DNA of 64,000 nt, from positions 741-64,740 of the forward strand of contig PCXZ01000018.1 of the NCBI GenBank assembly GCA_002762985.1. Direction: 5' to 3'. Made by a program: the position numbers and the translations under genes. The DNA comes from Candidatus Woesearchaeota archaeon CG10_big_fil_rev_8_21_14_0_10_44_13 (GTDB lineage Archaea; Nanobdellota; Nanobdellia; Woesearchaeales; UBA12501). Shown here in pieces: positions 5,977 through 48,803 of this stretch (positions within the stretch are counted from its first letter, which is position 1; the number at the start of each line of letters is the position of its first letter). The notes under the pieces were generated by a model. The model was not told the origin of the DNA and searched no databases. It worked only from the letters and a program-made list of their open reading frames with translations.

Positions 5977-5991
5977 GGCAAGAGGATAAAT

Positions 5992-6945
5992 ATGGGGGAG
6001 CTTAGAAAAGATTATTTCCTTGACAGATGGGTGATCATCGCGAGCGAAAGGGGCAAGAGGCCTCATGAGTTCGTGCAGGAACAGGTGAAACAGAAGGCTG
6101 GCAAATGCTATTTCTGCCCAGGCAGCGAGGATGAGACTCCCCCTGAGATATTCAGGATTGGCGCAAAGAACAGGTGGAAGATGAGGGTCTTCCCAAACAA
6201 GTTCGCCGCAGTGAGGCAGGAAGGCCAAGCTTCCATAAAGACCGACAACATATTCTATACCTTCTCTGCAAATTACGGCATGCATGAGGTGATCGTAGAG
6301 ACGAATGACCACAAGAAGCAGCTCTGGGACCTCGCTCCGAAAGACATAGTCGACCTGATCTCGCTTTATTCGATGAGGATAAAGGAACTGGGCAAGATGA
6401 ATGGGATAAAGTATGTCCAGGTCTTCAAGAATTCAGGAAAGGAAGGCGGTACATCGATATTGCACTCGCATTCCCAGGTGATCGCATACAATAAGGTGCC
6501 TGAACTGGTGGAACAGGAGGCAAAGGCGATAAAGGAATTCAAGGAGAAGATGAATATCTGCCCTTACTGCTGCATAATCAACAGCGAAAAGGATTCTTTC
6601 AGGAGATGCTTTGAGAACAGGAATTTTGTCGCTTTCGCGCCTTATGCCTCGAGATTCCCTTTCGAGATATGGGTGCTGGCAAAGCAGCATGTGAAAAGCA
6701 TAACTGATCTTGACAACGGCCAGGTAAAGGATCTTGCAGAGGTCATGAACAGCATACTAAAAAAACTGAAGAAGCTGAATGCGCCTTATAATTTCATGCT
6801 GCATAATTCCCCCGCAGGCGAGGATTTCCATTTCCATATCGAGATACTGCCGAGGCTCGCAACATGGGCAGGGTTTGAGTTCAACGGCACGATAATAAAC
6901 ACCCTGCCTCCTGAAGAGGCTGCGAAGTTCTATAGGGGGGAATGA
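5992..6945 (+). CDS. GalT-family nucleotidyltransferase (galactose-1-phosphate uridylyltransferase / nucleotide-sugar phosphorylase-like)
   Basis: N-terminal CYFCPG zinc-type motif, HSHSQV histidine-triad-like motif, duplicated HIT-like halves; 317 aa. Confidence 0.7.
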   Translation: MGELRKDYFLDRWVIIASERGKRPHEFVQEQVKQKAGKCYFCPGSEDETPPEIFRIGAKNRWKMRVFPNKFAAVRQEGQASIKTDNIFYTFSANYGMHEVIVETNDHKKQLWDLAPKDIVDLISLYSMRIKELGKMNGIKYVQVFKNSGKEGGTSILHSHSQVIAYNKVPELVEQEAKAIKEFKEKMNICPYCCIINSEKDSFRRCFENRNFVAFAPYASRFPFEIWVLAKQHVKSITDLDNGQVKDLAEVMNSILKKLKKLNAPYNFMLHNSPAGEDFHFHIEILPRLATWAGFEFNGTIINTLPPEEAAKFYRGE

Positions 6946-6989
6946 AGGTTTTGAGTTGATTGCTCTATCTTTAATGTGTTTTTCTAACA

Positions 6990-7150
6990 ATTTATGCATC
7001 AAAATCAACATTCCATTCGCCTCCAAGGATGAACTTCCTGATATGGCTCATGCCCTCTTCTTTGATTTGCTGAATTACCCCACTACAACCGCTCCCCAGC
7101 CCAGTACGTTGTAGGAGGGGGACGGGGGGGACCTTGGTCCCCCCGTAGAT
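6990..7150 (-). repeat. Intergenic repeat family, copy F (inverted orientation)
   Basis: Reverse complement matches core ...GAAGAGGGCATGAGCCATATCAGGAAGTT...GGAGGCGAATGGAATGTTGATTTTG and hairpin module TAGGAGGGGGACGGGGGGGACC..GGTCCCCCC. Confidence 0.7.
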
Positions 7151-7294
7151 ATTGTTGGTTTATTTCAAAAACATAAATTTTATGAACAAAAACCTAATAA
7201 AAAAACACAAAACCATCACCAATCCAAAAACTATATAAACAACTTCTTTTCATATACTAATAATAAATATCTAAGTGAAAAAAGAGGGGGCTAA

Positions 7295-9139
7295 ATGACT
7301 AAAGTCGTGCATACATTAGGCAATTCTACACTCCAGGGAGAAACACCTAACCCCCATTTCATCCTCACAAACAAGATAGGAGGTTATTTCTCGCTGAGCG
7401 ATTACCAGTCATCAAGGTATCAGGGGGCGTTCTTCTGCGACAATTTCGACATGTTCAAGGTCATAGAGAATATCCTCCCCTTGAATTCCGGGAAAGTCGT
7501 CAAGGTGACGAATAAATTCTACTGCATAGAGAGGGAGAGGGAGAACGGACTGAAAGAGACATTGTTCATGCCTTTGTTCCACAACTCAATAGGGTATCAG
7601 CTAAGCGCTGAAACAGACATACAGATCGATCTTGATGTGAGAAAAGCGTATGATGTCAGGGAATTCGGCAGGTATTACAGGATCTACAAGGAGAAGGACA
7701 AGATAATCATAGAGTTCACGAAAAAGACAGACAGCAAGGAGGACAAGACGCATGCGAAGCAGGAATTCACGGTCTATGTCGTGATAGACAACGGCAAGGA
7801 GTTCAGGAAAGCCAATGAATTCTACCAGGTCAGCTATCCTTTCGACAGGGAAAGGAACTCATGGCCATGGGAGAGGTATGTGTACAGGTCTATCATAATA
7901 AAAGCGGACAGATTGGTCATCTCGTTCTCCAAGAACAAGAACAAAGCCATACAGGAGAATGAGAAGCTGCTCAGCAACCTCAGGAATGTCAAGGAAAAAC
8001 AGCAGATGTATGTGAATATCACGAAGAAATTCGAGGACGAGAAGATGACGATGGCTTACAGGTCTGCATGCTCATCATTGGACCATCTTGCTAATGTGAT
8101 AAGCAACAAGAAAGGCATCTATGCAGGGTTGTGGTGGTTCTTCCAGTACTGGACAAGGGATGAGGCAGTATCCTTGAGGGCATTGATGATACAGGGGAAA
8201 TACGACCTTGTCAAGGACATACTGTTCAGGAAGCTGAAGGAGATAAAAGACGATGGAAGGATCCCTAACAGGTACCCTGCTTCTGATCTCGAGTCTGCAG
8301 ACGGGATAGGCTGGGTCATGAAGAGATGCTATGACCTGTTCGAGGAATTGTACAGGAAAAACCTCATCACGGAATATCTCTCAAAAGATGACCTCACATT
8401 CATGAAGAAAAAAGTGGAGGATTCCGTCTATATGCTGCTGAAGAGGTATACAGCCCAGGATTTTGCCATAAACAGCAAGCTTGAGACATGGATGGACACT
8501 GAATACAGGGGGGATAACAGGGAAGGTATAAGGATAGAGATTCAGGCATTGAGGCTCTGCACTTACAAGCTCATGAAGCTGCTGTGCAGGACAATGAAGG
8601 ATGATGTGGGCCATAATATGGCTGTCCATCTTGAGAACGACCTTGCGAAAAAAGTGAGGGAGAGGTTCTGGAACGGAAGGTATCTCAAGGACGGTGTCAA
8701 TGATGAGACGATAAGGCCTAATGTGTTCATAGCCCATTATGTATACCCTGAATTGCTGTCCAATTCGCAGTGGGAGAAATGCTTCAAGACGATAATGCCT
8801 AAGCTGTGGAACGGCTGGGGCGGCATCTCGACCATAGACAAGGAAAACCCATTGTTCTGCAACTATCATGCCGGCGAGAACAACCAGAGCTACCACAGGG
8901 GCGACTGCTGGTATTGGCTGAATAACCTTGCGGCAGTATGCATGAATAGGGTCAATAAGAGGAAATTCAAGGAGTATGCTGATAAGATCCTTGAAGCGAG
9001 CACCCATGAGATACTGTTCTCAGGTGCGATAGGCCATCATGCAGAGATAAGCTCTGCTGCCAACAGGGAGAGCAAAGGCTGCTTGATGCAGGCGTGGAGC
9101 GCAGCGATGTACATAGAGATGGTTGAGGAGATGTTCTAA
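7295..9139 (+). CDS. Glycogen debranching enzyme (amylo-alpha-1,6-glucosidase, GDE C-terminal domain family)
   Basis: GLWWFFQYWTRDEAVSLRAL motif; 614 aa. Confidence 0.8.
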   Translation: MTKVVHTLGNSTLQGETPNPHFILTNKIGGYFSLSDYQSSRYQGAFFCDNFDMFKVIENILPLNSGKVVKVTNKFYCIERERENGLKETLFMPLFHNSIGYQLSAETDIQIDLDVRKAYDVREFGRYYRIYKEKDKIIIEFTKKTDSKEDKTHAKQEFTVYVVIDNGKEFRKANEFYQVSYPFDRERNSWPWERYVYRSIIIKADRLVISFSKNKNKAIQENEKLLSNLRNVKEKQQMYVNITKKFEDEKMTMAYRSACSSLDHLANVISNKKGIYAGLWWFFQYWTRDEAVSLRALMIQGKYDLVKDILFRKLKEIKDDGRIPNRYPASDLESADGIGWVMKRCYDLFEELYRKNLITEYLSKDDLTFMKKKVEDSVYMLLKRYTAQDFAINSKLETWMDTEYRGDNREGIRIEIQALRLCTYKLMKLLCRTMKDDVGHNMAVHLENDLAKKVRERFWNGRYLKDGVNDETIRPNVFIAHYVYPELLSNSQWEKCFKTIMPKLWNGWGGISTIDKENPLFCNYHAGENNQSYHRGDCWYWLNNLAAVCMNRVNKRKFKEYADKILEASTHEILFSGAIGHHAEISSAANRESKGCLMQAWSAAMYIEMVEEMF

Positions 9140-11149: not shown

Positions 11150-11917
11150 ATGGACATTTCAACACTCAAAGAAGCCGGCCTGACAGAAGGAGAGATCAAG
11201 GTATATCTTGCTTTGTTAGAATTAGGCTCCAGCACAACGGGCCCGATAGTTGAGAAATCCAGGATAGCCCGTTCTATTATTTATCAAATTCTAGAAAAGC
11301 TTATGCAGAAAGGCCTTGTCTCTGTCATAACAAAAGAGAAGACAAAATATTTCCAGGCTGCAGAGCCGAATAAGATATTGGATTACATTGATGAAAGGGA
11401 AGAAAGACTGCAGGAAAACAAGGAGATGATTGAAAAACTGCTGCCGGAGCTTGAACTCAAGCAGAAGATGGCTGTGAAGAGCGCGACAAACATGTATTTT
11501 GGTTACAAAGGCATCCGCACAGCACATGAACATCTGTATTTGAAGCTGAAAAAAGGCGAAAGCTATGATTATATGGGCGTCCCTGCTTTCCAGCCAGAAG
11601 AACAGCATCTTTACTGGAAAAGGGATCATGTCAGAAGAATAAAGGCAAAAATAAAAACAAGAATATTATTCAATATAGATGCTGATCAAAACACATTAAA
11701 AAACAGGAATTCATATTGGGGGGTTGATGCAAGATACATGCCTGAAGGGATAAGAACTCCTGCCTGTTTTGCCATCTTCAAGGATACAACAATAATCATC
11801 TTGCAGTCCCCTCATGCCCTCGCAGTAGAAATAATCAATCAGGACATCGCAGACTCATTCCAGGCCTATTTCGAGGAATTCTGGAAGAGGAGTGAGCCGT
11901 TTAAACCAAACCCCTAA
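11150..11917 (+). CDS. TrmB-family transcriptional regulator
   Basis: N-terminal LTEGEIKVYLALLELGSSTTGPIVEKS.IARS.IYQILEKL wHTH; paralog of the 63275.. ORF. Confidence 0.75.
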   Translation: MDISTLKEAGLTEGEIKVYLALLELGSSTTGPIVEKSRIARSIIYQILEKLMQKGLVSVITKEKTKYFQAAEPNKILDYIDEREERLQENKEMIEKLLPELELKQKMAVKSATNMYFGYKGIRTAHEHLYLKLKKGESYDYMGVPAFQPEEQHLYWKRDHVRRIKAKIKTRILFNIDADQNTLKNRNSYWGVDARYMPEGIRTPACFAIFKDTTIIILQSPHALAVEIINQDIADSFQAYFEEFWKRSEPFKPNP

Positions 11918-12483
11918 ATCTCATGCCCCATCTTCTCTCTTTTCGCATCAAGATACCTCTTGTTATGCCCGTTCGGCTGGACAACGATGGGTATCCTCTC
12001 AGAGACCTCTATGCTTCCGTTCAGCCCCTTTATCTTCTCAGGATTATTCGTGATCAGCCTTATCTTCTTCAGACCGAGATCCTTCAGGATTGCGACAGCA
12101 GCAGAATAATCCCTCTCATCGGCCCTGAAGCCCAGCTGGTGGTTGGCTTCGACTGTGTCCATGCCTTTGTCCTGCAATGAATATGCCTTCATCTTGTTCA
12201 GCAAACCTATGCCCCTGCCTTCCTGCCTGAGATAGATCAAAACACCGTTCCTGCCTTCAGCGATAATCTGCATTGATCTTTCAAGCTGCTCCCTGCAGTC
12301 GCATCTCAATGAGAAAAGAGCCTCTCCTGTCAGGCATTCGGAATGGATCCTTACAAGAGCGCCATCTTCAGGATTCCCTGCTACCAAGGCCATGTGGCAT
12401 TTCTCTCCTTCAGAATAGGGGATCAGCCTGAACTGCCCGAATTTTGTGGGAAACTTCACCTCATCCCCTTTATTTAGCCTCAT
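11914..12483 (-). CDS. ribA: GTP cyclohydrolase II
   Basis: RIHSECLTGEALFSLRCDCREQL zinc-binding motif. Confidence 0.85.
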   Translation of the reverse strand: MRLNKGDEVKFPTKFGQFRLIPYSEGEKCHMALVAGNPEDGALVRIHSECLTGEALFSLRCDCREQLERSMQIIAEGRNGVLIYLRQEGRGIGLLNKMKAYSLQDKGMDTVEANHQLGFRADERDYSAAVAILKDLGLKKIRLITNNPEKIKGLNGSIEVSERIPIVVQPNGHNKRYLDAKREKMGHEI

Positions 12484-13586
12484 ATATATCCCTCTATGAC
12501 GACATCATCGCCTATCTTCCTTATCTCGACATCCCTGAGGTTTATCGCCTGGTCCATGTTCCTTATGCCTTCTCCGCCGAGAGGCGTCTTTGCATCCCTG
12601 CCGCCGATGATCTTGGGGGAGATGAAATAGACGAATTTGTCGACTATGCCTTGTTTCAGCGCAGAGGCGCTTATCTCTGAGCCCCCTTCAATCATTATAT
12701 TTGTTATACCCCTTAGGACAAGCTCATACATCAGCTCTTTCAGGTCAACCTTATCTTCATCCTTCCCGACAATCACAACACCGATGCCTTTCTGCTCAAG
12801 CGCCACCTTTTTCTGCCTGTCGCATCTCTTTGTCGTTGCGATCAGCGCATTCTTGTCTGCCAATATCCTTGAATCCAATGGTATCCTCAATCTGCTGTCG
12901 AGTATTATCCTCAAAGGGTCCCTTCCGTTCTCCATCCTGCATGTAAGCCTAGGATTGTCGTGAAGGACGGTGTTTATGCCGACGATGACTGCATCAACCC
13001 GGTTCCTGAGTTCATGGACATATCTCCTGCTCGCCTCTGAGCTTATCCATTTCGACATCCCTGTAGTGGTTGCTATCTTCCCGTCCAGCGTCATGGCTGC
13101 CTTCAATATGACGAACGGCCTTTTTGTAGTGACATATTTTATGAATGCCTCGTTCAGCTTCCTTGTCTCCTTCTCCATTATGCCGTATTCAGTCTCTATC
13201 CCGTGTTTTTTCAGTTCCCGGAAGCCATTCCCGTTCACTTTCGGATTCGGGTCCTGGATAGAGGAGACGACCCTGCTTATGCCTGCCTCGATTATCGCTT
13301 TTGTGCATGGGCCTGTACGGCCATAGTGGCAGCAGGGTTCAAGAAGGGTGTACATGGTTGCGCCTTTCAGCATGCTCTTGTCGCTTACAGAATTCATCGC
13401 CTCGATCTCAGCATGAGGCATGCCAGCTTTCTTATGGTACCCATGGCCTATCACTGTGCAGTCTTTGACTATGACTGCCCCCACTATGGGATTCGGAGAA
13501 GTCCTTCCTTCAGCTTTCCTGGCCAGCTCAAACGCAAGCTGCATGAAATAGCTGTCCTCTTTTTTTCCTCGCCCTTCCATTTTCAT
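12480..13586 (-). CDS. ribD: Bifunctional riboflavin deaminase/reductase
   Basis: HAEIEAM ... PCCHYGRTGPC deaminase motif plus C-terminal reductase domain; 368 aa. Confidence 0.85.
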   Translation of the reverse strand: MKMEGRGKKEDSYFMQLAFELARKAEGRTSPNPIVGAVIVKDCTVIGHGYHKKAGMPHAEIEAMNSVSDKSMLKGATMYTLLEPCCHYGRTGPCTKAIIEAGISRVVSSIQDPNPKVNGNGFRELKKHGIETEYGIMEKETRKLNEAFIKYVTTKRPFVILKAAMTLDGKIATTTGMSKWISSEASRRYVHELRNRVDAVIVGINTVLHDNPRLTCRMENGRDPLRIILDSRLRIPLDSRILADKNALIATTKRCDRQKKVALEQKGIGVVIVGKDEDKVDLKELMYELVLRGITNIMIEGGSEISASALKQGIVDKFVYFISPKIIGGRDAKTPLGGEGIRNMDQAINLRDVEIRKIGDDVVIEGYI

Positions 13587-13603
13587 TCACAGATTATGAG
13601 CTT

Positions 13604-14029
13604 CTATTTAAGCCTTCTCAGCATCTTCAGGCATGACTCTACTGACCGTTTTGCATACTCATCGATCCTGTCAACGGCTCCTGCATGGGTTATCTTCGGC
13701 CCCGTAACTCCCAGTGCGACGGGCTTGTCGAACTGTACTGCCAGGTCTGCCATCTTCCTTGCCGCATTCTGCGCAACGATGTTGTCATGGTCAGTGTCCC
13801 CTTCGATGACGGCGCCCAAAGTCACAACTCCGTCTATATTCTTCATCTCAAGAAGCCTCTTTATAGCCAATGGCATGTCAAATGCTCCCGGCACCCTCAT
13901 GACCTTCTCCACCTTTGCGCCCATGAAGACTGCATGCTCTTCTGCCATCTTCGCCATGAGATGGGTGATGTCTGCGTTGAAATCCGACACAACAAACCCT
14001 ATCTTTTCATTCATTTTTATCCCCCGCAT
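13604..14029 (-). CDS. ribH: 6,7-dimethyl-8-ribityllumazine synthase
   Basis: 141 aa, lumazine synthase fold motifs (GAFDMP, TLGAVIEGDT). Confidence 0.8.
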   Translation of the reverse strand: MRGIKMNEKIGFVVSDFNADITHLMAKMAEEHAVFMGAKVEKVMRVPGAFDMPLAIKRLLEMKNIDGVVTLGAVIEGDTDHDNIVAQNAARKMADLAVQFDKPVALGVTGPKITHAGAVDRIDEYAKRSVESCLKMLRRLK

Positions 14030-14066
14030 TGTTTTTTATCATTAAATCACCATAAAACATAAGAGA

Positions 14067-14543
<477 letters not shown>

Positions 14544-16212: not shown

Positions 16213-16345
16213 GTTACCCCCTTCAGCCTCGAATGCTTCCTGCCCTCTTTAAAGCATAGCGCAAAGCATATAAAAATATTGCGGGAAAAACTATGACAGC
16301 AAACTTTATTAATCGAATCAACCCTAACCCTTTATAAAAGAGCAT

Positions 16346-19040: not shown

Positions 19041-19466
19041 ATGAAGCTGAAAGTCAAAAAACTCCAAGAAGATGCTATTCTTCCTCAGCATGCCAAAAAA
19101 GGCGATGCTGCCATCGACCTGAGTTCGTGCGAAGAGCTTGTTCTTAAGGCAGGAGAGAAGAGGCTTGTGAGGACAGGAATAAGCCTTGCGATACCAGAAG
19201 GCTTTGCCGGCTTTGTATGGGACCGTTCAGGCCTTGCAGCCAATCATTCTGTCCACAGCATAGCAGGAGTAGTCGATTCTGGGTACAGGGGTGAAGTGAA
19301 GGTCGTCCTGATAAACCTCAGCAAGGAGGATTTCAGGATCGAGAAAGGCATGAGGATAGCGCAGATGGCGATCCAGCCTGTTTCCTCAGTGGATGTCGAA
19401 GAAGTTAGGGAGCTGGATAATGATACTGAAAGGGGAAAAGGAGGATTTGGAAGCACTGGAAGATAG
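19041..19466 (+). CDS. dut: dUTP diphosphatase
   Basis: GDAAIDL ... RSGLA dUTPase motifs; 141 aa. Confidence 0.85.
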   Translation: MKLKVKKLQEDAILPQHAKKGDAAIDLSSCEELVLKAGEKRLVRTGISLAIPEGFAGFVWDRSGLAANHSVHSIAGVVDSGYRGEVKVVLINLSKEDFRIEKGMRIAQMAIQPVSSVDVEEVRELDNDTERGKGGFGSTGR

Positions 19467-21609: not shown

Positions 21610-22308
21610 TCATCTGAATATATCCTTTGATTTTTCCCATACTATCCTTTGTATGTCCCCTATCTGCATTATCCTTCCTTCTTTTACGCATTCGATCATG
21701 ATCCATCGCTCTTTTTTTGCTATCTCCATGTAGGCCTGCTCTGTGTCCTTCAGGTGGGAAGTGTCTGCTTCGTGGATATCCTTCCTGTTGCCTCTTTTTG
21801 TTATCAATGTCTGGGCGATCTCAGCAGGGACATGCAGGAAAATAACCGCATCAGGCCTCGGTATCATGTTCTGGCTGTATTCAAGGTCATCTATCCATTC
21901 CATGAACCTCTTCCTTTCCCCTGGATCCTTTATCTTTGATGCCTGATGGCCTTTGTTCGATTGCTGGTACCTATTGGCGATTATGATATCGCCTTCTTCA
22001 AGCCATCTTTTCATCATGGGTGCTGCATCAACCCTGTCCTCTGCATAGAATCTTGCGGCATCATACGGGCTTACGTCCTCTACTTTGCCGAATTTCCCGG
22101 CAAGATAATCCTCTACTTTCTTTGCGCATGGCCTGCCGTACTGCGGGAAATCGATTGTTTTTACCTTGAAGCCTTCTTTCTCAAGCTTTTCCACAAGAAG
22201 CTTTGATTGGGTAGCCTTGCCAGAGCCGTCAGTGCCTTCGATTACGATAAGTTTTCCTTTATGCTCCGATTTTCCTCTTTTAGGCATGTGTACCCCCAAG
22301 CCAAGCAA
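21610..22308 (-). CDS. tmk: Thymidylate kinase
   Basis: LIVIEGTDGSGKATQ P-loop; likely start at the internal Met (MPKRGK, ~22287). Confidence 0.85.
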   Translation of the reverse strand: MLGLGVHMPKRGKSEHKGKLIVIEGTDGSGKATQSKLLVEKLEKEGFKVKTIDFPQYGRPCAKKVEDYLAGKFGKVEDVSPYDAARFYAEDRVDAAPMMKRWLEEGDIIIANRYQQSNKGHQASKIKDPGERKRFMEWIDDLEYSQNMIPRPDAVIFLHVPAEIAQTLITKRGNRKDIHEADTSHLKDTEQAYMEIAKKERWIMIECVKEGRIMQIGDIQRIVWEKSKDIFR

Positions 22309-22401
22309 ATTATCAGGTTTTTATATAGTTTGTGGTGGTAAAAGTTTAAGGTTGTTTTGTTTATAGTGCTATTATTGGCAGAAGGAATTTTTTTACATAG
22401 A

Positions 22402-22513
22402 ACGCCGCCATCACCGCGGCTCGACGATCTCCTCACGTCGTTCGGAGCCCTACTCGGCACCCCGGAGGGGCCGACCCCCGCCTCGCCGAGCGCAGTGGCG
22501 GCGTGCGCAGGAC
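22402..22513 (+). other. GC-rich structured island, candidate cis-regulatory or small RNA upstream of the ACS gene
   Basis: ~110 nt of >70% GC in a ~40% GC genome; 9-bp terminal helix (ACGCCGCCA / TGGCGGCGT) enclosing at least two internal hairpins. Confidence 0.3.
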
Positions 22514-22566
22514 AAAACAAAAAAATATATAAACCAACCAATAAAATAATGTTATCAGGGGGTTTT

Positions 22567-24564
22567 ATGGACGTCGTAAAGACTATATTCGAAGGAGCGA
22601 AAAAACTGCTTGCATTGGCAGAGAAAAGCCTTAAAGAAGGTGATGTGAAGCCTTTTTCTGATACTGAGTACAATCTTCCTGTAGTATATGCGCTGTTCGG
22701 CAGGGAGATAAAGGGAAAAGAGGATGCTGCTGAGATTCTCGATAAGATAAGGAAAAAGCTAGAGAAAGAGCAGACATTGGAGAATGCTCTAAAGGCAGGG
22801 GTTTATTCTTATGCCCTGCTGGAGCTTGTTGAAGCCGTAAAATATGCTAAAGAGAATAAGACCAATTTCATCCCTGACACTGTGATAAGGAGCCTGGGCC
22901 TGCCTCTGGTCAATGGGACGATCCCTGGCGTCGCTGTTGTTGTCGGAAAGGCAAAAGACGAAGAGGAGATGAAAAAAGTCCTTGAGGAAGCTGTCTCACA
23001 TGCGCTACTTGTCCTTGTTGTCGGAGAATGCTGCAATCAGTATGATAAGACAAAATTTACTCCTGAGAAAAATGTCATCCCTATAGGCGCAGAACCCACA
23101 AACCTTGCCCACGTCATGAATATTGTGTTTAGGATACCGATGATCTTCGCAAAGATACCTCCTGGAGAGAAAAAAGAGATAGAAGAGTATATAACGGAGA
23201 GGGTTCCTGCTTTTGTGGTGGTTCTCGGAGAGATTGATGAGGTTGTTTTAGCTTTGGGAGCCGGCTGTTTAAGGTTAGGATTTCCAATCACTACAACAAA
23301 TGAAGCTGGAAAAGCAGTGGAACAAATCTTTGTAGGCCCTGCAGAAAAACTTATTGATGAAGGTGTAAAAAGAAAGGGGATTAAATCGAAGAAACTGGAC
23401 ATAAGACTGCCTATGGGCTATGGGAACCTTTATGTCGGGGAAACGATAAGGAAAGAGGATATGGCCCTGGAATTCGGCGGGAAGAAGTCAAAGGCATTCG
23501 AGCTTGTCCAGAAAGATGATTCCATAGAAGACGGTAAAGTCGAGATCATCGGCAAGGACATTGATGGCCTTGCAGAGAATGCGAATGTGGGTTTGATAGT
23601 CAGTGTGGCAGGAGACTTTGAGAAGGATGCAGAGCCTGTGTTCGAGAGGATGATACATGAGCACCTCAATAAGATAGAGGGATTCATGCATCTCGCTTCA
23701 AGGGATATCATATGGTGCAGGTTCTCCAATGAGGCCAAGAAGAAAGGGCTGAAGCTGAAGAATCTGGGAGAAGTCCTTGTGAGATCGATGAAACAGGAAT
23801 TCCCATTGATAGAGAAGGCTTCAGCGACAATAATAACAGATGATGATGAGTTCAGCAAGCAGCTTGCGCATGCGAAACATGTCTACAAGGAGAGGGATGA
23901 CAGGATAAAAGGCCTTACAGAGGAGAATGTGGATATGTTCTATGGCTGCACTATGTGCCAGAGCTTCGCCCCTAATCATGTATGTGTCATAACACCCGAG
24001 AGGATTGCGCTGTGCGGCGCGATAACATGGCTGGATGCAAAGACTGCGATGAAGATAAATCCTTCTGGCATGAATTTTGAGATACCTAAGGGAAGCATCA
24101 TTGACAATGAGAAGGGGGAATATGAAGGTGTGAATAAGATCGTGAAGCAGAAATCCCACGGCAAGATCGACCGTTTCCATCTCCATTCGATATTCGGCTT
24201 CCCGCATACAAGCTGCGGCTGTTTTGAAGCGATCGCGTTCTATATCCCTGAAGTCGACGGCATAGGCATTGTGCACCGTGATTTCAAGGGAGAAACCCCT
24301 ATCGGGATGAAATTTTCCACTCTTGCAGGAATGACTGGAGGAGGGCTGCAGTCAGAAGGGCTGATCGGAGTGGGAACTGCTTATGTTGCATCTAAGAAAG
24401 CGTTCCTGGGCCAGGGCGGCAGGGGGAAGATAGTTTGGCTGCCGAAGGAGCTGAAAGAGAGGTATAAGGATGATATTCCTGCTGAGATTTTTGGGAAGAT
24501 TGCGAGTGAGGAGGATGTGAAGGATATAAATGAGCTGCAAAAATGGGTTGATGGAAAGAAATAG
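22567..24564 (+). CDS. acsB: Acetyl-CoA synthase catalytic subunit (AcsB/CdhC family), bacterial-length
   Basis: C-x2-C-x8-C-x9-C ... (+67) C-G-C spacing identical to the A-cluster ligands of Moorella AcsB; YVGETIRKEDMALEFGG middle-domain motif; alternative start at 22549. Confidence 0.8.
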   Translation: MDVVKTIFEGAKKLLALAEKSLKEGDVKPFSDTEYNLPVVYALFGREIKGKEDAAEILDKIRKKLEKEQTLENALKAGVYSYALLELVEAVKYAKENKTNFIPDTVIRSLGLPLVNGTIPGVAVVVGKAKDEEEMKKVLEEAVSHALLVLVVGECCNQYDKTKFTPEKNVIPIGAEPTNLAHVMNIVFRIPMIFAKIPPGEKKEIEEYITERVPAFVVVLGEIDEVVLALGAGCLRLGFPITTTNEAGKAVEQIFVGPAEKLIDEGVKRKGIKSKKLDIRLPMGYGNLYVGETIRKEDMALEFGGKKSKAFELVQKDDSIEDGKVEIIGKDIDGLAENANVGLIVSVAGDFEKDAEPVFERMIHEHLNKIEGFMHLASRDIIWCRFSNEAKKKGLKLKNLGEVLVRSMKQEFPLIEKASATIITDDDEFSKQLAHAKHVYKERDDRIKGLTEENVDMFYGCTMCQSFAPNHVCVITPERIALCGAITWLDAKTAMKINPSGMNFEIPKGSIIDNEKGEYEGVNKIVKQKSHGKIDRFHLHSIFGFPHTSCGCFEAIAFYIPEVDGIGIVHRDFKGETPIGMKFSTLAGMTGGGLQSEGLIGVGTAYVASKKAFLGQGGRGKIVWLPKELKERYKDDIPAEIFGKIASEEDVKDINELQKWVDGKK

Positions 24565-24600: not shown

Positions 24601-24800
24601 TGGGGAAACTACGTTTCCCCTTACCCCCTTCCTACATTGTGCTGGGAAGGGGAGCAAAAGCAGGCATTCAGGTGAGTTGTTTAAGGCAAAGAAGAGGGCA
24701 TGAGGCATATAGGGAAGTTGTGTGATGGAGCCGAATGGAATGTTGTTTTTGAAAAAAACAACTAAGAAAACCGAAGGTTTTCTGTTGAGGAAAAAATAGT
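24601..24800 (+). repeat. Intergenic repeat family, copy C (between acsB and cooC)
   Basis: TGGGGAAACTACGTTTCCCCTTACCCCCTTCCT hairpin module; CATGAGGCATATAGGGAAGTTGTGTGATGGAGCCGAATGG core; second hairpin GTTGTTTTTGAAAAAAACAAC. Confidence 0.7.
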
Positions 24801-24823: not shown

Positions 24824-25564
24824 ATGATAGTAGCAATCTCAGGCAAAGGCGGCGTAGGCAAGACAGTCTTCTCAGCTTTGACCATAAAATACCTCACGTC
24901 AAAAGGGAAGAAAGTCCTTGCTGTCGATGCAGACCCTGATGCGAACCTTGCAGAGGCCCTCGGTGTTGAAGTCGAGAACAGCATCGGCGGGATAAGGGAG
25001 GAATTGCAGAAGATCCAGCACAAGATACCTGGCGGACTGACAAAAGAGGCTTTCCTGCAGAGGAAGATACAGGAGATAATAAGCGAACATAAGGGTTTCG
25101 ACCTTCTTGTTATGGGGCGTGCAGAAGGCCAGGGCTGCTATTGCTGGGTCAACAACATATTGAGAGAAAACATAGACAAATTATCTGCCAATTATGATTT
25201 CACAATAATCGACTGTGAAGCGGGGCTTGAGCATCTGTCAAGAAGGACGACAAAAGATGTTGATATTATGTTCGTAGTGCTTGACCAATCAAGGCTTTCC
25301 CTTAACACTGCATTAAGGATAAAAGAGCTGGCAAAAGAGGTTGATATAAATTTCAAGAAGCTTTTCATAGTGCAGAACAAGGGCCAGAACAAGAACTTTG
25401 AGAAAGAGGCAGGGAAGGAAGGAATCAAGGTCATTGGAGTCCTGCCTGAAGACAATGAGATCGTGAGGCTGTACAGCGAGGGGAAAGCCATAACTGGCAT
25501 AAGCGAGAAGGCAAATGCTTATTATTCTGTCAAACAGGTTTGGGAGAACCAAAATATTTATTAA
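24824..25564 (+). CDS. cooC: CooC/AcsF-type Ni-insertion ATPase (MinD/ParA family)
   Basis: Deviant Walker A SGKGGVGKT and GQGCYCW CxC nickel-binding motif; 246 aa. Confidence 0.8.
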   Translation: MIVAISGKGGVGKTVFSALTIKYLTSKGKKVLAVDADPDANLAEALGVEVENSIGGIREELQKIQHKIPGGLTKEAFLQRKIQEIISEHKGFDLLVMGRAEGQGCYCWVNNILRENIDKLSANYDFTIIDCEAGLEHLSRRTTKDVDIMFVVLDQSRLSLNTALRIKELAKEVDINFKKLFIVQNKGQNKNFEKEAGKEGIKVIGVLPEDNEIVRLYSEGKAITGISEKANAYYSVKQVWENQNIY

Positions 25565-25603
25565 CTCTCCCCGAATCCTCCCTCTCATGAAAGGGGGTTC
25601 AAT

Positions 25604-26212
25604 ATGAGGATTTCTGCAGTCATAGAAGCTGATACTATAGAGAGCGCCCACCCCAAGGTCCTGGAATTGATCCATAATGAGGGGGATGAGCACAGCGACG
25701 AGTATGGGGCCAAGACAAGGGAAGTCTTCAACCTAATGATAAAGGTGAAGAACCCGACAGAGAAGATGATTCCGCATGCTTTCCACATGACGAAGATGGA
25801 ATTGGAGGAGTATGCCCTCAAATATTACCTCAGCCCGAAAGTCGAAGGCGAAGTCTACACCTATGGGGAAAGGATGCTTGATTTCAAAGGGGATGGGGAA
25901 TACAACCAGATCCAGCATATCATCGACAAGCTCAAGAAGAATGCAAACTCAAGGAGAGCTGTTGTTGTCTTATGGGATCCCACAAGGGATGGGACAAAGA
26001 TTGAGCATCCTCCGTGCATGGACATGCTGGTGTATAACCTCAGGAACGGGAAGCTCCATTGCACTTCTGTTTTCAGGAGCAATGACATGCTGAGGGCATG
26101 GCCGGCCAATGCATTCGGGATAACAAGATTGCAGGAATTCATCGCAGGAGAGATAGGATGCGAAGTCGGCACATTGACGACAATGTCAATAAGCGCGCAT
26201 ATTTATCTGTGA
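25604..26212 (+). CDS. thyA: Thymidylate synthase, short archaeal type (ThyA family)
   Basis: SRRAVVVLWD and EHPPCMD nucleophile motifs; 202 aa; paralog of the 20158..21606 ORF. Confidence 0.75.
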   Translation: MRISAVIEADTIESAHPKVLELIHNEGDEHSDEYGAKTREVFNLMIKVKNPTEKMIPHAFHMTKMELEEYALKYYLSPKVEGEVYTYGERMLDFKGDGEYNQIQHIIDKLKKNANSRRAVVVLWDPTRDGTKIEHPPCMDMLVYNLRNGKLHCTSVFRSNDMLRAWPANAFGITRLQEFIAGEIGCEVGTLTTMSISAHIYL

Positions 26213-26220
26213 GGATATCC

Positions 26221-27231
26221 ATGAAAACTAAAACGATATTGATTTTGGCAATTCTATGCATCTTCATTGTTTCATGCAGCGAGCAGCCTGGACAGCCTGA
26301 AGAAACAGGAGCCAAAGACACTAAAGCAGTTCAAACAATCCAGGAGGAAGCCAAAGCGCCTGAAATAACAAGAGAAAGCAAAATCCCTTCAGATGCAGTT
26401 AAGGTTACTCCTCAGACAGACATCAATCCTCCAAAATCAAAATCAGACGAATACGATGACCCTATTCCTTTATCCTCGGCAATCAACAGCGCAGGAGCTG
26501 AAGATTCCCCATTCATGATGCCAGATGGAAACACATTATATCTCTTCTTCACGCCCGATGTAAGGGTCCCTGTTGAAAAACAGCTTCTTGACGGTGTCAC
26601 AGGAATTTGGGTTTCAAAAAAAGTGATTGGAGAATGGGGCAAACCTGAAAGAGTTGTGCTCCAGGACCCTAAAAAGCTTGCGCTGGACGGCTGCGAGTTC
26701 GTCCTCGGCAGCACGATGTGGTTCTGCTCTGCACGGGAAGGCTATGCAGGCATAAACTGGTTCACAGCAGAATTCAAGGATGGGAAATGGCAGGATTGGA
26801 AGAGTGCGGATTTTAACCCTGATCATAAAGTAGGAGAGCTGCATATCTCAAATGACGGCAATGAGCTTTATTATCATTCAGACAGGCCCGGCGGCAAAGG
26901 CGGCCTGGACATCTGGGTGTCAAAAAAGGTCAATGGGGAATGGCAGCAGCCGGAAAATGTTGAGGCAGTCAACTCAGAGAGGGATGATGGGTGGCCTGCA
27001 TTGAACCCTGAGGAGAATGAGCTTTGGATTTACAGGGATTACGGGCTGTTGAGGTCAAAGAAAATCAATGGAGAATGGCAGACGCCTGAACCGATGTTCT
27101 CGCCGCTTGCGGGCGAAGCGACACTGGACAATGAAGGGAATGTCTATTTTGTCCATCATTATTTCAAGGACGATAAGATGATAGAAGCGGATATTTACGT
27201 TGCGCATAAAAAAGCGGTAAAACGGCGGTAA
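26221..27231 (+). CDS. Lipoprotein with PD40/TolB-like beta-propeller repeats
   Basis: MKTKTILILAILCIFIVSCSEQ lipobox; repeated DGN.LYF/YHSDRPGGKGG.DIWVS units. Confidence 0.55.
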   Translation: MKTKTILILAILCIFIVSCSEQPGQPEETGAKDTKAVQTIQEEAKAPEITRESKIPSDAVKVTPQTDINPPKSKSDEYDDPIPLSSAINSAGAEDSPFMMPDGNTLYLFFTPDVRVPVEKQLLDGVTGIWVSKKVIGEWGKPERVVLQDPKKLALDGCEFVLGSTMWFCSAREGYAGINWFTAEFKDGKWQDWKSADFNPDHKVGELHISNDGNELYYHSDRPGGKGGLDIWVSKKVNGEWQQPENVEAVNSERDDGWPALNPEENELWIYRDYGLLRSKKINGEWQTPEPMFSPLAGEATLDNEGNVYFVHHYFKDDKMIEADIYVAHKKAVKRR

Positions 27232-27241
27232 GGTGAATAGG

Positions 27242-27712
27242 ATGAAAGCAAAAATCATGGTTTTGGCCTTTATTGTGATGTTCGCATTGAGCGGCTGCGG
27301 AAGCACAAAGTGGGATATCTTCAAGGACGGGAAATTCAGCATAAGCTATCCTGTGATGAATATGGGCAAAGACCTGAATGAGAACCTGATGCTGCAGACA
27401 GGCAATTCCAGATGCATGCTCCTGGTGAACAAGTACCCTGGGCAGTCAGACGTGAAGGGATTCGCAAACTACATAAAAGACCTGCTGACAAAAGAACCTG
27501 CAACGACAATCACAAGCGAGGACATCAATGACTCAGAAGCCAATTTTGAACTGAGGGTCATCTACAGCAACAAGCCGTACATCTCAAAAGTCAAGTTAGT
27601 GTCGTGCGAAGGTGCAATGTACAATATAATGATGAACTGCCAGGAAAACGGCTATGAAAAGAATGCCCAGGATGTGGAATCCACACTAAGCTCGGTAAAA
27701 TGCAGTGAATGA
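27242..27712 (+). CDS. Lipoprotein, function unknown
   Basis: MKAKIMVLAFIVMFALSGCGS lipobox. Confidence 0.5.
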   Translation: MKAKIMVLAFIVMFALSGCGSTKWDIFKDGKFSISYPVMNMGKDLNENLMLQTGNSRCMLLVNKYPGQSDVKGFANYIKDLLTKEPATTITSEDINDSEANFELRVIYSNKPYISKVKLVSCEGAMYNIMMNCQENGYEKNAQDVESTLSSVKCSE

Positions 27713-27716: not shown

Positions 27717-28484
27717 ATGATAAACAAGACAAGGATAGGCGATATCGAAATCGGAGGGGAATCGAGATTCTTCAGGTTCGAAGAGAAAGATGATTTCAGG
27801 ATGGCATTCGCCCTTGCATATGATGAGCATAACCCAAAAATCATCGAAGAGAATGATGTGGATGCTGTCGCTATAACTATAAGAAGTGATAATCCTGAGG
27901 AAGCGATAAAGCAGGTCGAGGATTTCAGGAGTAGATGCAAGAAGCCGTTGATAATCTACACCCAGGACAACCCTAACACCGACCATATAATCATAGATGC
28001 TATAGCAAGGAGATTCCCCGGCCAGCATTTCCTTTTCTGCTCAGCGACAGTCAAGAACAAGGCGGCAGATATAGCGAATTCCGCCCTCAAGTTCGGCCAC
28101 AATGTAAGCGCTTATACGACATTGGATCCTGGCGGAGCCATCTCCCTTAACAAAGACCTCTTGAAGACGGGCCTGAAGCCTAAGCAGATCGTCATCGACC
28201 CGCTGACATCATTCATAGGGTATGGCATTGAATACTCTATAAGCGCGATGGAGAGGATAAGGCTGGATGCATTAGCCACAGACGAGACATTGAGGATGCC
28301 TATTCTTGCAGACCTGTCCGCTGTAAACCAGCTGAGAGAGGCCGATACGAAGGAAAAACAGCTCCATTGGGAGACCATGACTGCAGTCGCATTGATCGCT
28401 GCAGGCGCTGACCTGTTCATATTCAGGCACATAGAATCGCTGAGGAAAGTGAAGGGATTCGCAGAAAAGATGAAGAAGAGATAA
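27717..28484 (+). CDS. acsD: Corrinoid iron-sulfur protein small subunit (AcsD/CdhD family)
   Basis: IVIDPLTSFIGYGIEYSISAMERIRLDAL and WETMTAVALIAAGADLFIFRH match AcsD motifs recalled from Moorella. Confidence 0.7.
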   Translation: MINKTRIGDIEIGGESRFFRFEEKDDFRMAFALAYDEHNPKIIEENDVDAVAITIRSDNPEEAIKQVEDFRSRCKKPLIIYTQDNPNTDHIIIDAIARRFPGQHFLFCSATVKNKAADIANSALKFGHNVSAYTTLDPGGAISLNKDLLKTGLKPKQIVIDPLTSFIGYGIEYSISAMERIRLDALATDETLRMPILADLSAVNQLREADTKEKQLHWETMTAVALIAAGADLFIFRHIESLRKVKGFAEKMKKR

Positions 28485-28521: not shown

Positions 28522-29649
28522 ATGAAACTGAGCCCATTCAACCTTTATCCGCATCTTCCGAAGAAGAACTGCAGGGAATGCGGGGAATCCACATGCCTGG
28601 CTTTCGCCGTGAAGCTGCTGAACAGGGAAGCAGAGCTTGAGAAATGCCCGCATGTCAATGATGAACAGAAATCAAAGCTTAAGGCCATGTTCGAGCCGCC
28701 TGTGAAAGAGATAAGATACAAAGGATATAAGATGGGGGGAGAAGAGGTGATTCACAGGCATGAGCTGACATTCCATAATCTTCCGCTAATTGCATCGAAA
28801 AACAGGCCGGATATATTTTTTGAGAGGGCTGGCAAGAGGATGTCTGTTGAGCTTAAAGAGGCTCAGGATGACATCGGCGGGATCATATGGTGCAAAGAGA
28901 AGGCAAGAGCAGATGAATCCATAGAGAAGGCAAAAAAGGATGATCTGCCCGTGATAATGAGGGTGAATTCGATAGAAGAGGCAAAATCATTCTCAACAAG
29001 ATATGACAAGATCATGGTTGAATTCCACGGCTCTCCTGCAGAGGTCTTCAGGAATCTCAAGGATTACAGGGAGAGGGCGATAAAGGGTGAGCAGGGATGC
29101 AATCTTCCGACGATGTTCCTGGCTGATGATGAGGCAGAAGCGGCTTATGCATTGATGAGGTATGCGAATATTGTCGTGATAAACAACGAGGAAAAGGAAT
29201 TCCTTGAGCCATTCATGTATCTGCGCCAGGCGATATTCTCTGACCCGAGGATCCCTGCAAAAGTGGATGCTATACTCTACAAGATAGGGACTCCTGATGA
29301 GAACAGCCCTATCTTCGTCGTAGGAAATTATGCCCTGACATATTACACTGTCTCAGGCGACATAAACTCCCAGAAGATAAACTCCTATCTCATCGCATTC
29401 GACACTGAGGGTTTGAGCGTCTGGACAGCAGTCGCTGCCAATAAGTTCCTCCCTTCAAAGATAAGAGAGGTAATTGAAAACTCAAGGCTTTCTGAGAGGG
29501 TGAAGAACAGGACTCTGGTCATCCCGGGCTTCGCAGCGCCCTTAAAGGGAGCGATTGCAGAGGAAACCGGATGGAAGGTGGTTGTAGGGCCTGAGGACAG
29601 CAGGGAGATAGGGAATTTTATAGAGGAGATGAAAAGAGAGAAGCAATGA
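28522..29649 (+). CDS. acsC: Corrinoid iron-sulfur protein large subunit (AcsC/CdhE family), shortened
   Basis: N-terminal C-x2-C-x4-C-x16-C [4Fe-4S] motif (CRECGESTC...C); 375 aa. Confidence 0.7.
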   Translation: MKLSPFNLYPHLPKKNCRECGESTCLAFAVKLLNREAELEKCPHVNDEQKSKLKAMFEPPVKEIRYKGYKMGGEEVIHRHELTFHNLPLIASKNRPDIFFERAGKRMSVELKEAQDDIGGIIWCKEKARADESIEKAKKDDLPVIMRVNSIEEAKSFSTRYDKIMVEFHGSPAEVFRNLKDYRERAIKGEQGCNLPTMFLADDEAEAAYALMRYANIVVINNEEKEFLEPFMYLRQAIFSDPRIPAKVDAILYKIGTPDENSPIFVVGNYALTYYTVSGDINSQKINSYLIAFDTEGLSVWTAVAANKFLPSKIREVIENSRLSERVKNRTLVIPGFAAPLKGAIAEETGWKVVVGPEDSREIGNFIEEMKREKQ

Positions 29650-31801: not shown

Positions 31802-31894
31802 GAATGTTGCTGTAAATGGAGATATTATAAAGGTTGCGGTGAGGGGCCATAAAAAATCAAAAAGCTATATAAATACGCCCTATTTACTGCATTT

Positions 31895-43623: not shown

Positions 43624-44208
43624 TTAATATATGACTTGGGAGACTATGCACTTATGGGCATCAAAGCTGCCTTTAAGGGCCTTAAGCTCGTTTAAGACTG
43701 CTTCAACTTTTGATCCCAATTCGCATATCTGGGTCGGTTCTGCAACAACCCCTGTGAAATCCTGAATATTATATACACCACCCACATTTTTCTTTCTACT
43801 ATTAAACCTCATCCTACTGAGTAATCCAAGGCCTCCCTCTTTCATTCCTTCTTTTAAGCATAGATCCCTGTACTGAACGACAGCTTCTACAAACTCTTCA
43901 GGAGTAGGTTGATATATCAAAGGAAGTTCCCAACTTACCATTTCAGGGTCTATATGATTCAAACTTGGTTTAAAAGGATTCTTAAAATCAATTGAATTAA
44001 AAGGCCATTTCTCTCTTTCGAATCTTGACCAGATTACTGGTTTTATATCAGAACTCTCACAGTATCTTTTTATAGCAGAATCAACCTCATCAGCAACATG
44101 CTTCCTGAATTTGCTGACTTCCTTAAAGGATTTCCTATCATTTATTATTTCAGGGTTTGTTTCCATCAAGCCCATTGAGATAAGATATCTTCCCACCATG
44201 CAGGGCAT
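43624..44208 (-). CDS. Hypothetical protein
   Basis: 194-aa ORF. Confidence 0.4.
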   Translation of the reverse strand: MPCMVGRYLISMGLMETNPEIINDRKSFKEVSKFRKHVADEVDSAIKRYCESSDIKPVIWSRFEREKWPFNSIDFKNPFKPSLNHIDPEMVSWELPLIYQPTPEEFVEAVVQYRDLCLKEGMKEGGLGLLSRMRFNSRKKNVGGVYNIQDFTGVVAEPTQICELGSKVEAVLNELKALKGSFDAHKCIVSQVIY

Positions 44209-44779
44209 GATGATATTGCTACTATATAAATGTTTCGGAACAGCTATTACTCTTGAGTAACAACTGCCCTTAATCCGCAGAATTCTTGCTTTAAAGGCCT
44301 CAATTCGCTTTTTACCTTGCTTCCTGTTTGCGAACTCATCTTCCTGTGTCCTGGCTCAATCTGAGATTGCTCTTGATTGCGTTTTGATTTCAGGCAATCT
44401 TCAATCTGTGAAGCTCCACTGATATTTAAGCTCTTGCCTTATTTTGTGAGAATTTGAGCCAATATGGCCATGGTACCATTTTTAGGACTAAAAATAGGAC
44501 TAAAAGTTGTGTTATAGTCTTTATATACTTTGAAATCTTATAGAAGATTGTGCCAGATTTTGTGCAAGATTTTGTAACAATTCGTTGCAAAGGGGTTTTA
44601 TATACTTTGAAATCAATAAGCTTCCGTTGCTTCAACGTTGTTTTTGTTAAAGATGTTAAAATAGTCACTTCACTAGTAGTGTGCTTATAAAATGTATACC
44701 TAAAAAAATTGTACAATTTTCTGTACAAAAAGTTTAGTTAGGGTATTTATATAGTCCAAAAACAATCAGGAGGTTCAAG

Positions 44780-45289
44780 ATGATGCAGTACAAACGAGAG
44801 CCTTTAGAGGATTTTGAGATAGAAGCCCTGAAGAAGGCCTGCGAATCATTTGAAGATTCATTAGTCGTCAATGTCCTGTTAGAGACGGGCATGAGAGTAT
44901 CTGAACTTGCCAATCTGACAAAGGATCAAATCTCTTGGCAGAGAGACTGCATCGCAACAATAGGCAAGGGCGGAAAAAGAAGGGTAATCCCTATGAGCAA
45001 AGCCACGAGGTTTTACCTTACTGAACATTTTAAAGACCATTCAAAGATAGAGTTTGGCCAGAGATGGATTCAGAAGATTGTAAAAAGAATAGCTGAAAAA
45101 GCCAGTATAATGAAGAAGATAAGCCCTCATGTTCTCAGGCATACTTTTGCAGTCTGCTACATCCACAAAGGCGGAAACATAAGGGCTTTGCAGGGCATCT
45201 TAGGCCATTCCCACATACAGACCACCGATATGTACCTCAACTATTCGGGCATAAGGGTTCTGGAGGATTTCAAGCGTGTATGGGAATGA
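44780..45289 (+). CDS. Tyrosine recombinase, catalytic domain only (169 aa)
   Basis: R (ETGMRVSE), K, HVLRHTF, LGHSHIQTTDMYLNYS catalytic residues. Confidence 0.7.
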   Translation: MMQYKREPLEDFEIEALKKACESFEDSLVVNVLLETGMRVSELANLTKDQISWQRDCIATIGKGGKRRVIPMSKATRFYLTEHFKDHSKIEFGQRWIQKIVKRIAEKASIMKKISPHVLRHTFAVCYIHKGGNIRALQGILGHSHIQTTDMYLNYSGIRVLEDFKRVWE

Positions 45290-46350: not shown

Positions 46351-46364
46351 GCGAGAAGCCGTTA

Positions 46365-46392
46365 AAACCTCGAAAACAGGCTTTTCGAGGTT
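46365..46392 (+). terminator. Perfect 11-bp stem hairpin after the 45280..46350 gene
   Basis: AACCTCGAAAA cagg c TTTTCGAGGTT. Confidence 0.35.
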
Positions 46393-47150: not shown

Positions 47151-47258
47151 TAATCGGGCATACCCCTCGGCTTTCTTTTATAATTTTGTGTTAATTTGGT
47201 ATATAATGCCCTCAGTTTAATCCATTTATGGCCGGAAAGAATAAAATTATATAAATTC

Positions 47259-48178: not shown

Positions 48179-48189
48179 GGAGGTAAAAA

Positions 48190-48795: not shown

Positions 48796-48803
48796 TTATC
48801 AAA

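Follow-up and report, generated by a model that had tools for sequence, protein, structure and literature searches.

The biochemistry of archaeal ThyA thymidylate synthases is thinly described and their cofactor specificity has not been established (PMC9931769, PMC9012536); extracts of Methanosarcina have been shown to form thymidylate (dTMP) with tetrahydrosarcinapterin (H4SPT), as summarised in one of these reports (PMC9931769). In Dehalococcoides an anabolic enzyme consuming one-carbon (C1) or methyl units has been proposed to draw on a methylated corrinoid protein, and core-MetE accepts a methyl group from methylcobalamin (PMC7005905). Wood-Ljungdahl pathway (WLP) genes were inferred in a recent reconstruction to have disappeared from DPANN Cluster 2 archaea (PMC13473441). 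We analysed 64,000 nucleotides of Candidatus Woesearchaeota archaeon CG10_big_fil_rev_8_21_14_0_10_44_13 (contig PCXZ01000018.1, positions 741 to 64,740; hereafter the window, to which all coordinates refer), in which a gene designated here thyA2 precedes the cdhD and cdhE genes for the corrinoid iron-sulfur protein (CFeSP). Its product belongs to the methanogen-type thymidylate synthase family and is most likely an ordinary thymidylate synthase in an unusual, clade-restricted genomic position. An earlier interpretation made without database searches (the sequence-only reading) had called the arrangement undescribed, and no description of it was found in the literature we searched.

The thyA2 gene and its active site

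We read thyA2, with a probability of about 0.6, as the gene of a working, ordinary pterin-dependent thymidylate synthase of the short archaeal type. This gene, the other thymidylate synthase gene of the contig and the nucleotide genes near the latter are located as follows.

25604-26212, + strand: thyA2, methanogen-type thymidylate synthase of 202 amino acids, short at the C-terminus (ends AHIYL); NCBI PIN86855.1
20158-21606, - strand: thyA1, 482-amino-acid fusion of MtrA-like, ThyA and PterinBD-DUF4346 domains (PF04208, PF00303, PF14251; TIGR03283, 191 bits)
21610-22308, - strand: dTMP kinase gene tmk (PF02223, NF005923), adjoining thyA1
19041-19466, + strand: dUTPase gene dut (TIGR00576, 161.6 bits)

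The open reading frame (ORF) of thyA2 extends from an ATG at 25604 to a stop at 26212 over 202 codons, and assemblies from several samples contain the same locus, the longest of the contigs reaching 87.5 kb; its proteins are PIN86849-PIN86864. PF00303 (E = 1.1e-22) is the sole Pfam match of the protein, and the pterin-binding TIM barrel PF00809 of the AcsE/MeTr type was not matched in the Pfam scan. With the NCBIfam model TIGR03283 ('thymidylate synthase, methanogen type') it scores 200 bits, where the curated cut-off is 174.55, along profile positions 2-194 of 201, while the classical ThyA models TIGR03284 (66.3 bits vs a cut-off of 108.35) and NF002497 (63.8 vs 327) are missed.

Equivalent residues of Escherichia coli ThyA were assigned by profile-profile alignment (hhalign probability 98%). 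The catalytic Cys138 within a P-C motif (E. coli C146) and Tyr87 (Y94) are conserved without exception in the 21 relatives aligned. Arg117 and Arg118 (R126 and R127, phosphate ligands from the partner subunit) are present, as are Arg158 and Ser159 (R166 and S167, phosphate ligands of deoxyuridine monophosphate, dUMP), Asp161 (D169), and His199 and Tyr201 (H207 and Y209, deoxyribose ligands). The uracil-specifying Asn169 (N177) is invariant and is not the Asp of cytosine hydroxymethylases. All mapped core residues for dUMP binding and catalysis are invariant within the thyA2 clade, which we define by ThyA proteins 83-100% identical and of which seven loci were seen. The description of a ThyA-family protein of 202 amino acids with intact catalytic Cys and Arg-Arg pair in the sequence-only reading is thereby confirmed, and its further suggestion of a repurposed ThyA-fold enzyme is weakened, as regards a substrate other than a nucleotide, by the retention of the nucleotide-binding residues, the equivalent of E. 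coli Arg21 excepted.

At that position the clade carries a DEYGA loop with Tyr33 where standalone archaeal enzymes have SERG, by a mapping that follows secondary-structure register rather than superposition. Many fusion-type thymidylate synthases have Tyr or His at this site, which shows that the Arg is not universal in the family. Likewise the Arg that the clade has at the E. coli L172 position finds its counterpart in the polar residues common there among fusion-type enzymes, and short C-termini are found again in the standalone ThyA proteins P0030, P0214 (Pacearchaeota), P0223, P0225 and P0229. None of these three peculiarities is, on the alignments, unique to the clade, and a C-terminal truncation derived in this clade only is ruled out by the recurring short tails.

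The AlphaFold2 model of the protein has a mean predicted local distance difference test score (pLDDT) of 91.9 and a predicted TM-score (pTM) of 0.90. Its top Foldseek matches are thymidylate synthases, MilA and AfhB, with E values of about 1e-15 to 1e-16 and TM-scores of 0.7-0.86; thymidylate synthase structures match at E = 3.5e-16 and MilA at TM-scores of 0.83-0.86. MilA, a CMP hydroxymethylase, and AfhB, a phage dCMP hydroxylase, are pyrimidine-nucleotide enzymes sharing the ThyA fold. Their place among the best structural matches, together with the truncated C-terminus, could point to another modification of a pyrimidine nucleotide such as hydroxymethylation of dUMP, in which a less sealed site would let the methylene intermediate be hydrated and not reduced. 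We consider this extremely unlikely: the protein scores above the cut-off of a thymidylate synthase equivalog model, Asn169 points to uracil and not to cytosine, short C-termini recur in the family and no nearby gene encodes a kinase or glucosyltransferase of the sort that marks hypermodification systems.

Among five clade members thyA2 has a ratio of nonsynonymous to synonymous substitution (dN/dS) of 0.03-0.06 with dS saturated, and its dN of 0.07 is lower than the 0.18 of CdhD and CdhE. Because of this ratio the gene is, on the evidence of its substitution pattern, functional and under tight constraint. The other thymidylate synthase gene 4 kb away, the short C-terminus and the lost Arg21 equivalent could be taken as marks of a duplicate that is redundant or in decay and serves no separate function; the low dN/dS over saturated synonymous divergence, and a length and stop position identical in five lineages, effectively refute this, and the promoter and Shine-Dalgarno sequence are conserved as well.

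The other gene, thyA1, lies 4 kb upstream of thyA2 on the opposite strand, with the dUTPase gene and a NUDIX gene close by. Its architecture recurs in 564 homologues, the named ones from Woesearchaeota, Aenigmatarchaeota, Nanoarchaeota and Patescibacteria, some of which are additionally fused to Tmk, and this three-domain fusion evidently serves DPANN and candidate phyla radiation (CPR) organisms as their usual thymidylate synthase. The ThyA domains of thyA1 and thyA2 are 36% identical and catalytic residues are kept in both. Since the contig also encodes this intact fusion, thyA2 is by sequence a second, intact copy. It is not the only thymidylate synthase, nor is its paralog degenerate, the two together being the situation that the sequence-only reading had named as counting against its interpretation. 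A recent duplication of the ThyA domain of the fusion was rejected as the origin of thyA2 on the 36% identity and on neighbour-joining (NJ) trees that place the thyA2 clade outside the fusion clade. The MtrA-like domain of thyA1 is without the segment holding His84, the cobalt ligand of MtrA (PMC4915002). The extra domains of the fusion may, as one possibility, be a built-in pterin holder or reductase; no account of DUF4346 or of MtrA-ThyA fusions was found in the searched literature.

If thyA2 encodes an ordinary thymidylate synthase, as we favour, the conserved residues and established ThyA chemistry suggest the following course. The enzyme would be a homodimer in which Arg117 and Arg118 reach into the active site of the partner. 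It would bind dUMP via Arg158, Ser159, Asn169, His199 and Tyr201; Cys138 would add to C6 of the uracil and C5 would take a C1 unit from a 5,10-methylene-tetrahydropterin, of the tetrahydromethanopterin (H4MPT)/sarcinapterin type or the cell's own reduced pterin, with a hydride from the pterin then yielding dTMP and dihydropterin. The fusion by tmk and dut would be the primary thymidylate synthase of the genome, and thyA2, with a promoter of its own and first in its unit, would be co-expressed with the CFeSP.

Transcription unit, gene order and other features of the window

The genes and signals around thyA2 are the following.

22357-24564, + strand: acetyl-CoA synthase (ACS), AcsB/CdhC type with N-terminal domain (PF03598, PF19436; TIGR00316, 525 bits)
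24824-25564, + strand: CooC/AcsF-like P-loop ATPase with GKGGVGKT and a C-x-C motif (C-Y-C)
25548-25564, + strand: promoter-like B recognition element (BRE)/TATA box ACCAAAATATTTATTAA, overlapping the cooC stop, 40-56 nt before the thyA2 ATG
25591-25598, + strand: Shine-Dalgarno-like AAGGGGGT, 6 nt 5' of the thyA2 ATG, invariant in five relatives
26222-27231, + strand: lipoprotein 1, between thyA2 and cdhD, with lipobox IVSC and PD40/TolB-like repeats
27233-27712, + strand: lipoprotein 2, with lipobox LSGC and no family match
27717-28484, + strand: CdhD (PF03599, E = 5e-30)
28522-29649, + strand: CdhE (NF003195, 331 bits vs a cut-off of 306; PF04060, PF03599)

ORFs and profile matches thus bear out the position given by the sequence-only reading, between a CooC-like ATPase and two lipoproteins followed by cdhD and cdhE. 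Its claim of co-directional genes with short gaps stands for cooC through cdhE, all on the + strand and separated by 39, 9, 1, 4 and 37 nt, and does not extend to ACS, whose end at 24564 lies 259 nt from the cooC start. This gap opens with a perfect 8-bp hairpin at 24602-24620 (GGGGAAAC-TAC-GTTTCCCC), 38 nt past the ACS stop, which may mark where a transcript ends or is processed. The translation of ACS shows C-G-C and Cys-cluster motifs and its true start is probably downstream of 22357; the real start of lipoprotein 1 is 26222 (MKTKTILILAILCIFIVSC). CdhD (255 amino acids) and CdhE (375 amino acids) are unusually short. Only six homologues of CdhD reach at least 71% identity and the next stands at 32%, with none between.

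The 60 nt 5' of thyA align in five clade members, beyond which both sequence and genes are unrelated. The box has the consensus ACC[AG][CA]AA[TC][CA]TTTATTAA, invariant or nearly so across the five orthologous upstream regions, where it lies 38-56 nt before the ATG, and fits a putative promoter when judged by the archaeal BRE/TATA consensus. A search permitting two mismatches locates the motif at 3 places in the window vs 0.22 expected, and each lies 20-65 nt 5' of a start codon. Two further copies of the promoter-like box (ACCRMAAYMTTTATTAA) are found at 16296-16312 (+) and 31824-31840 (-), and the box resembles the BRE/TATA consensus of the organism. A GGGGG run occupies 25593-25597 of the Shine-Dalgarno-like stretch. 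The stretch 18000-30500 matches no Rfam family at E ≤ 1, and on this ground a riboswitch, or any different RNA of known type, was rejected for the leaders of the operon.

Because the conserved box lies 5' of thyA in the relatives, thyA2 can be placed first in its unit with no need for co-transcription with cooC. It probably heads a thyA-(lipoproteins)-cdhD-cdhE unit, to judge from the gene spacing. The sequence-only reading had joined cooC to this transcript. Such co-transcription is possible from the layout of the genes and is not required, given the box proper to thyA2 and an upstream gene that in the relatives is RhuM-like, vapBC or of Lrp type and never cooC; the part of the claim that concerns cdhDE is probable in view of the short thyA-cdhD gaps in two relatives. 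Gene orders in the clade are as follows.

Window species: cooC-thyA-lipoprotein-lipoprotein-cdhD-cdhE
L001 and L090: RhuM-like gene-thyA-cdhD(-cdhE), with thyA-cdhD gaps of 8 nt (L001) and 1 nt (L090)
L089: vapBC-thyA-lipoprotein 1
L096: Lrp-type regulator-thyA-lipoprotein 1-another lipoprotein
L100/L101 and L102: cdhD-cdhE with another gene 5'; the contigs end before thyA could show

Of these L096 is the sole new clade locus from a scan of Joint Genome Institute (JGI) metagenomes, and a scan of GTDB genomes returned no clade member and nothing closer than 45% identity. The slot 5' of the thyA promoter holds a RhuM/DinD-like gene in L001 (2-454) and L090 (3-146) and vapBC in L089 (117-688), mobile or accessory genes whose presence suggests an insertion hot spot.

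Conservation of the order in related genomes, on which the sequence-only reading had made its case depend, does not reach beyond this narrow clade. Linkage of thyA to cdhDE is seen only in loci whose ThyA has 83% identity or more (the window, L001 and L090). No Cdh, ACS or CooC homologue occurs within 8 kb of thyA in any of 80 GTDB species loci (0/80), mostly of Methanothrix, itself an owner of cdh operons, and the linkage is also absent in seven other relatives. Divergent purF / thyA-glyA clusters, the classic surroundings of a thymidylate synthase, hold ThyA proteins that are 47-48% identical to thyA2 and of which one (P0010) carries the name Altiarchaeota; some other outside relatives have no C1 context. 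Conversely the locus with the cdhD relative at 32% (L103) has the canonical order cdhA-cdhC-cooC-cdhD-cdhE with no thyA, its ATPase between cdhC and cdhD being 47% identical to the CooC-like ATPase of the window.

Within the clade the order says little on function, because unrelated genes downstream are equally syntenic between the window and L001 (HAD hydrolase, PF1765-like, TFS, a protein of 220 amino acids, NMD3 and others) and because lipoprotein genes have been inserted. The latter are present in L089, L096 and L102-like loci and absent in L001 and L090, and are on this comparison unrelated insertions into the thyA-cdhDE operon. As judged from these alignments, the order within the clade is what general synteny at such depth would give.

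Elsewhere in the window, the stretch 44000-52500 has a low GC content of 32-38% vs about 45% and is probably an integrated element; it is flanked by tyrosine recombinase/integrase genes at 44780-45289 (+) and 51670-52404 (-) and carries LemA, uridine-kinase-like and 2'-5' RNA ligase-like genes, along with several ORFs that match no family. The gene at 53874-55052 (+) encodes a protein with a GGDEF (diguanylate cyclase) domain, which is uncommon in an archaeal genome. Riboflavin genes for GTP cyclohydrolase II, RibD and lumazine synthase at 11914-14534 (-) and a glycogen metabolism cluster at 1039-9139 indicate a biosynthetic capacity above what DPANN archaea are often credited with.

Possible links to acetyl-CoA synthase and corrinoid proteins

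Among the window ORFs scanned there is neither an AcsE (a PF00809-type methyltransferase) nor a carbon monoxide dehydrogenase (CODH), whereas ACS, the CooC-like ATPase, CdhD and CdhE all look intact. The absence of AcsE had been remarked on in the sequence-only reading and is correct for the ORFs scanned, yet it is no sign of a missing function, because archaeal CdhDE performs the transfer of methyl from pterin to corrinoid itself (PMC13370988). No account of ACS in Woesearchaeota was found in the searched literature.

A CODH-less set of this kind raises the thought that ACS, CooC and CdhDE cleave acetyl-CoA and that the methyl group passes via the corrinoid to a pterin, is brought to the methylene level and is consumed by thyA2, making of the operon a unit that derives the carbon of dTMP from acetate. 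In at least three lineages thyA shares an operon with cdhDE, and a CODH-less ACS/CFeSP that splits acetyl-CoA as an anabolic methyl source has a precedent in Dehalococcoides (Zhuang 2014, as related in PMC7005905). A full WLP is moreover unexpected in this lineage, as we infer from PMC13473441, and a partial set would need another role. We hold this form of the C1-pool coupling that the sequence-only reading had raised to be unlikely. The route needs oxidation of methyl-pterin and no Mer, MetF or Mtd gene lies in the window; a CODH may be encoded elsewhere in the genome, the scan covering 64 kb; and the linkage is limited to a shallow clade with unrelated downstream synteny and with lipoprotein genes inserted in the unit.

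A HMMER search of 1.84 billion representatives brought up P0200 (391 amino acids, 51% identity) and P0202 (426 amino acids, 44%) as the best-scoring relatives outside the clade. In both an N-terminal MtrA domain (137-141 bits) is followed by a ThyA domain that ends AHVYL(N), at the point where thyA2 ends as well. Both share LWDP/LWNP with thyA2 and P0200 also M-x-RAWPANAFG, and their MtrA domains keep His84 and have Ala for Glu54. These sequences hint at two encounters of a short-tailed ThyA with a partner of corrinoid type, one through fusion and the other through an operon. An origin of thyA2 by acquisition from Altiarchaeota, the first named matches, was not upheld: sister-group bootstrap values in the NJ trees were 4-32% overall (10% for P0200, 32% for an Asgard-type ThyA), and across all representatives the MtrA-ThyA fusion and the Asgard-type ThyA are at least as close to thyA2 as Altiarchaeota are.

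The two independent associations of ThyA with corrinoid proteins, in the CdhDE operon and in the fusion with MtrA, would suit an enzyme in which dUMP activated by Cys138 takes at C5 an intact methyl group from CH3-Co(III). The donor would be CdhE loaded by ACS as it cleaves acetyl-CoA and, in P0200 and P0202, the MtrA domain bearing His84. The AH[IV]YL end common to these proteins and thyA2, and the loss from thyA2 of the Arg21 equivalent and C-terminal helix, are consistent with such chemistry, and core-MetE, which takes methyl-corrinoid in place of methyl-folate, is a conceptual precedent (PMC7005905). The observations on the other side make it very unlikely in our estimate. His84 is gone from the MtrA-like domain of the common DPANN fusion, Ala replaces Glu54 even in P0200 and P0202, and a sister relationship to P0200 would stand on a bootstrap value of 10%. 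Short C-termini recur in standalone ThyA proteins including one from Pacearchaeota, ordinary fusion enzymes often have Tyr at the Arg21 position, and the score of thyA2 exceeds the equivalog cut-off for thymidylate synthases. We know of no ThyA-fold enzyme with a methyl-level donor.

Several observations weigh against thyA2 being an ordinary pterin-dependent thymidylate synthase. A complete thymidylate synthase already lies beside tmk and dut, so that a second needs a reason. The fourth phosphate ligand, the Arg21 equivalent, is replaced by Tyr, and the C-terminal helix of most family members is lacking, the protein stopping 13 residues early after AHIYL. The 64-kb window holds no glyA, folD/mtd, mer/metF or DHFR/Dmr gene for pterin handling. 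Gaps of 1-9 nt 3' of thyA in three lineages imply obligatory co-expression with the corrinoid protein, and the best-scoring outside relatives, P0200 and P0202, carry an MtrA domain of corrinoid-binding type with His84. To our knowledge, moreover, it has never been established which pterin archaeal ThyA enzymes prefer, and the short archaeal type has no solved structure, so that the donor is assumed. Still favouring an ordinary thymidylate synthase, we regard the adjacency of thyA2 and cdhDE as lineage-specific and as reflecting at most a common reduced-pterin C1 carrier; it is no proof of a direct catalytic partnership.

Comparison with known systems

Should thyA2 encode an ordinary thymidylate synthase, the locus would be of minor note: two thymidylate synthases in one DPANN archaeon, with one of them at the head of the cdhDE operon. 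It would also mark a Woesearchaeota lineage with ACS/CFeSP genes despite the WLP loss inferred for DPANN Cluster 2 (PMC13473441). A corrinoid link, if true, would add to ThyA and ThyX a third chemistry for making thymidylate and would explain the frequent joining of ThyA to MtrA-type domains in DPANN and CPR. It would give a pterin-poor DPANN cell a folate-independent, redox-neutral route to thymidylate, comparable to the idea put forward for core-MetE and CFeSP.

The short archaeal ThyA enzymes of TIGR03283 (about 200-240 amino acids) resemble thyA2 in having no long insert or C-terminal region of the bacterial enzymes and in their catalytic Cys, Arg-Arg pair, R-S-x-D, Asn and H-x-Y. In contrast to them thyA2 ends 13 residues earlier, has Tyr for the Arg of SERG and Arg at the L172 position, and is a second copy situated before cdhDE rather than near glyA/purF. 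The DPANN/CPR fusion belongs to the same TIGR03283 subfamily and shares with thyA2 the Tyr or His at the Arg21 position, in a loop one residue longer, and the polar residue at L172; it differs in being only 36% identical, by extra N- and C-terminal domains and by its context of nucleotide metabolism (tmk, dut). In P0200 and P0202 MtrA is fused N-terminally, whereas thyA2 is standalone and followed by CFeSP genes.

More distant is E. coli ThyA (264 amino acids; TIGR03284), which has the fold in common with thyA2 and a core from Tyr94 to Tyr209 (25% identity, hhalign 98%). Compared with it thyA2 has about 60 residues fewer, among them the C-terminus that closes over folate, and its N-terminal 80 residues are unalignable by sequence. 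The hydroxymethylases T4 dCH and MilA have Asp at N177 for cytosine where thyA2 has Asn169, and the likeness to MilA is one of fold only. The incomplete Wood-Ljungdahl module of Dehalococcoides is like the window in combining ACS and CFeSP with no CODH seen, in our case within 64 kb. Its consumer is the core-MetE methionine synthase, with demonstrated use of methylcobalamin, whereas the consumer in the window would be a ThyA-family enzyme and is a prediction.

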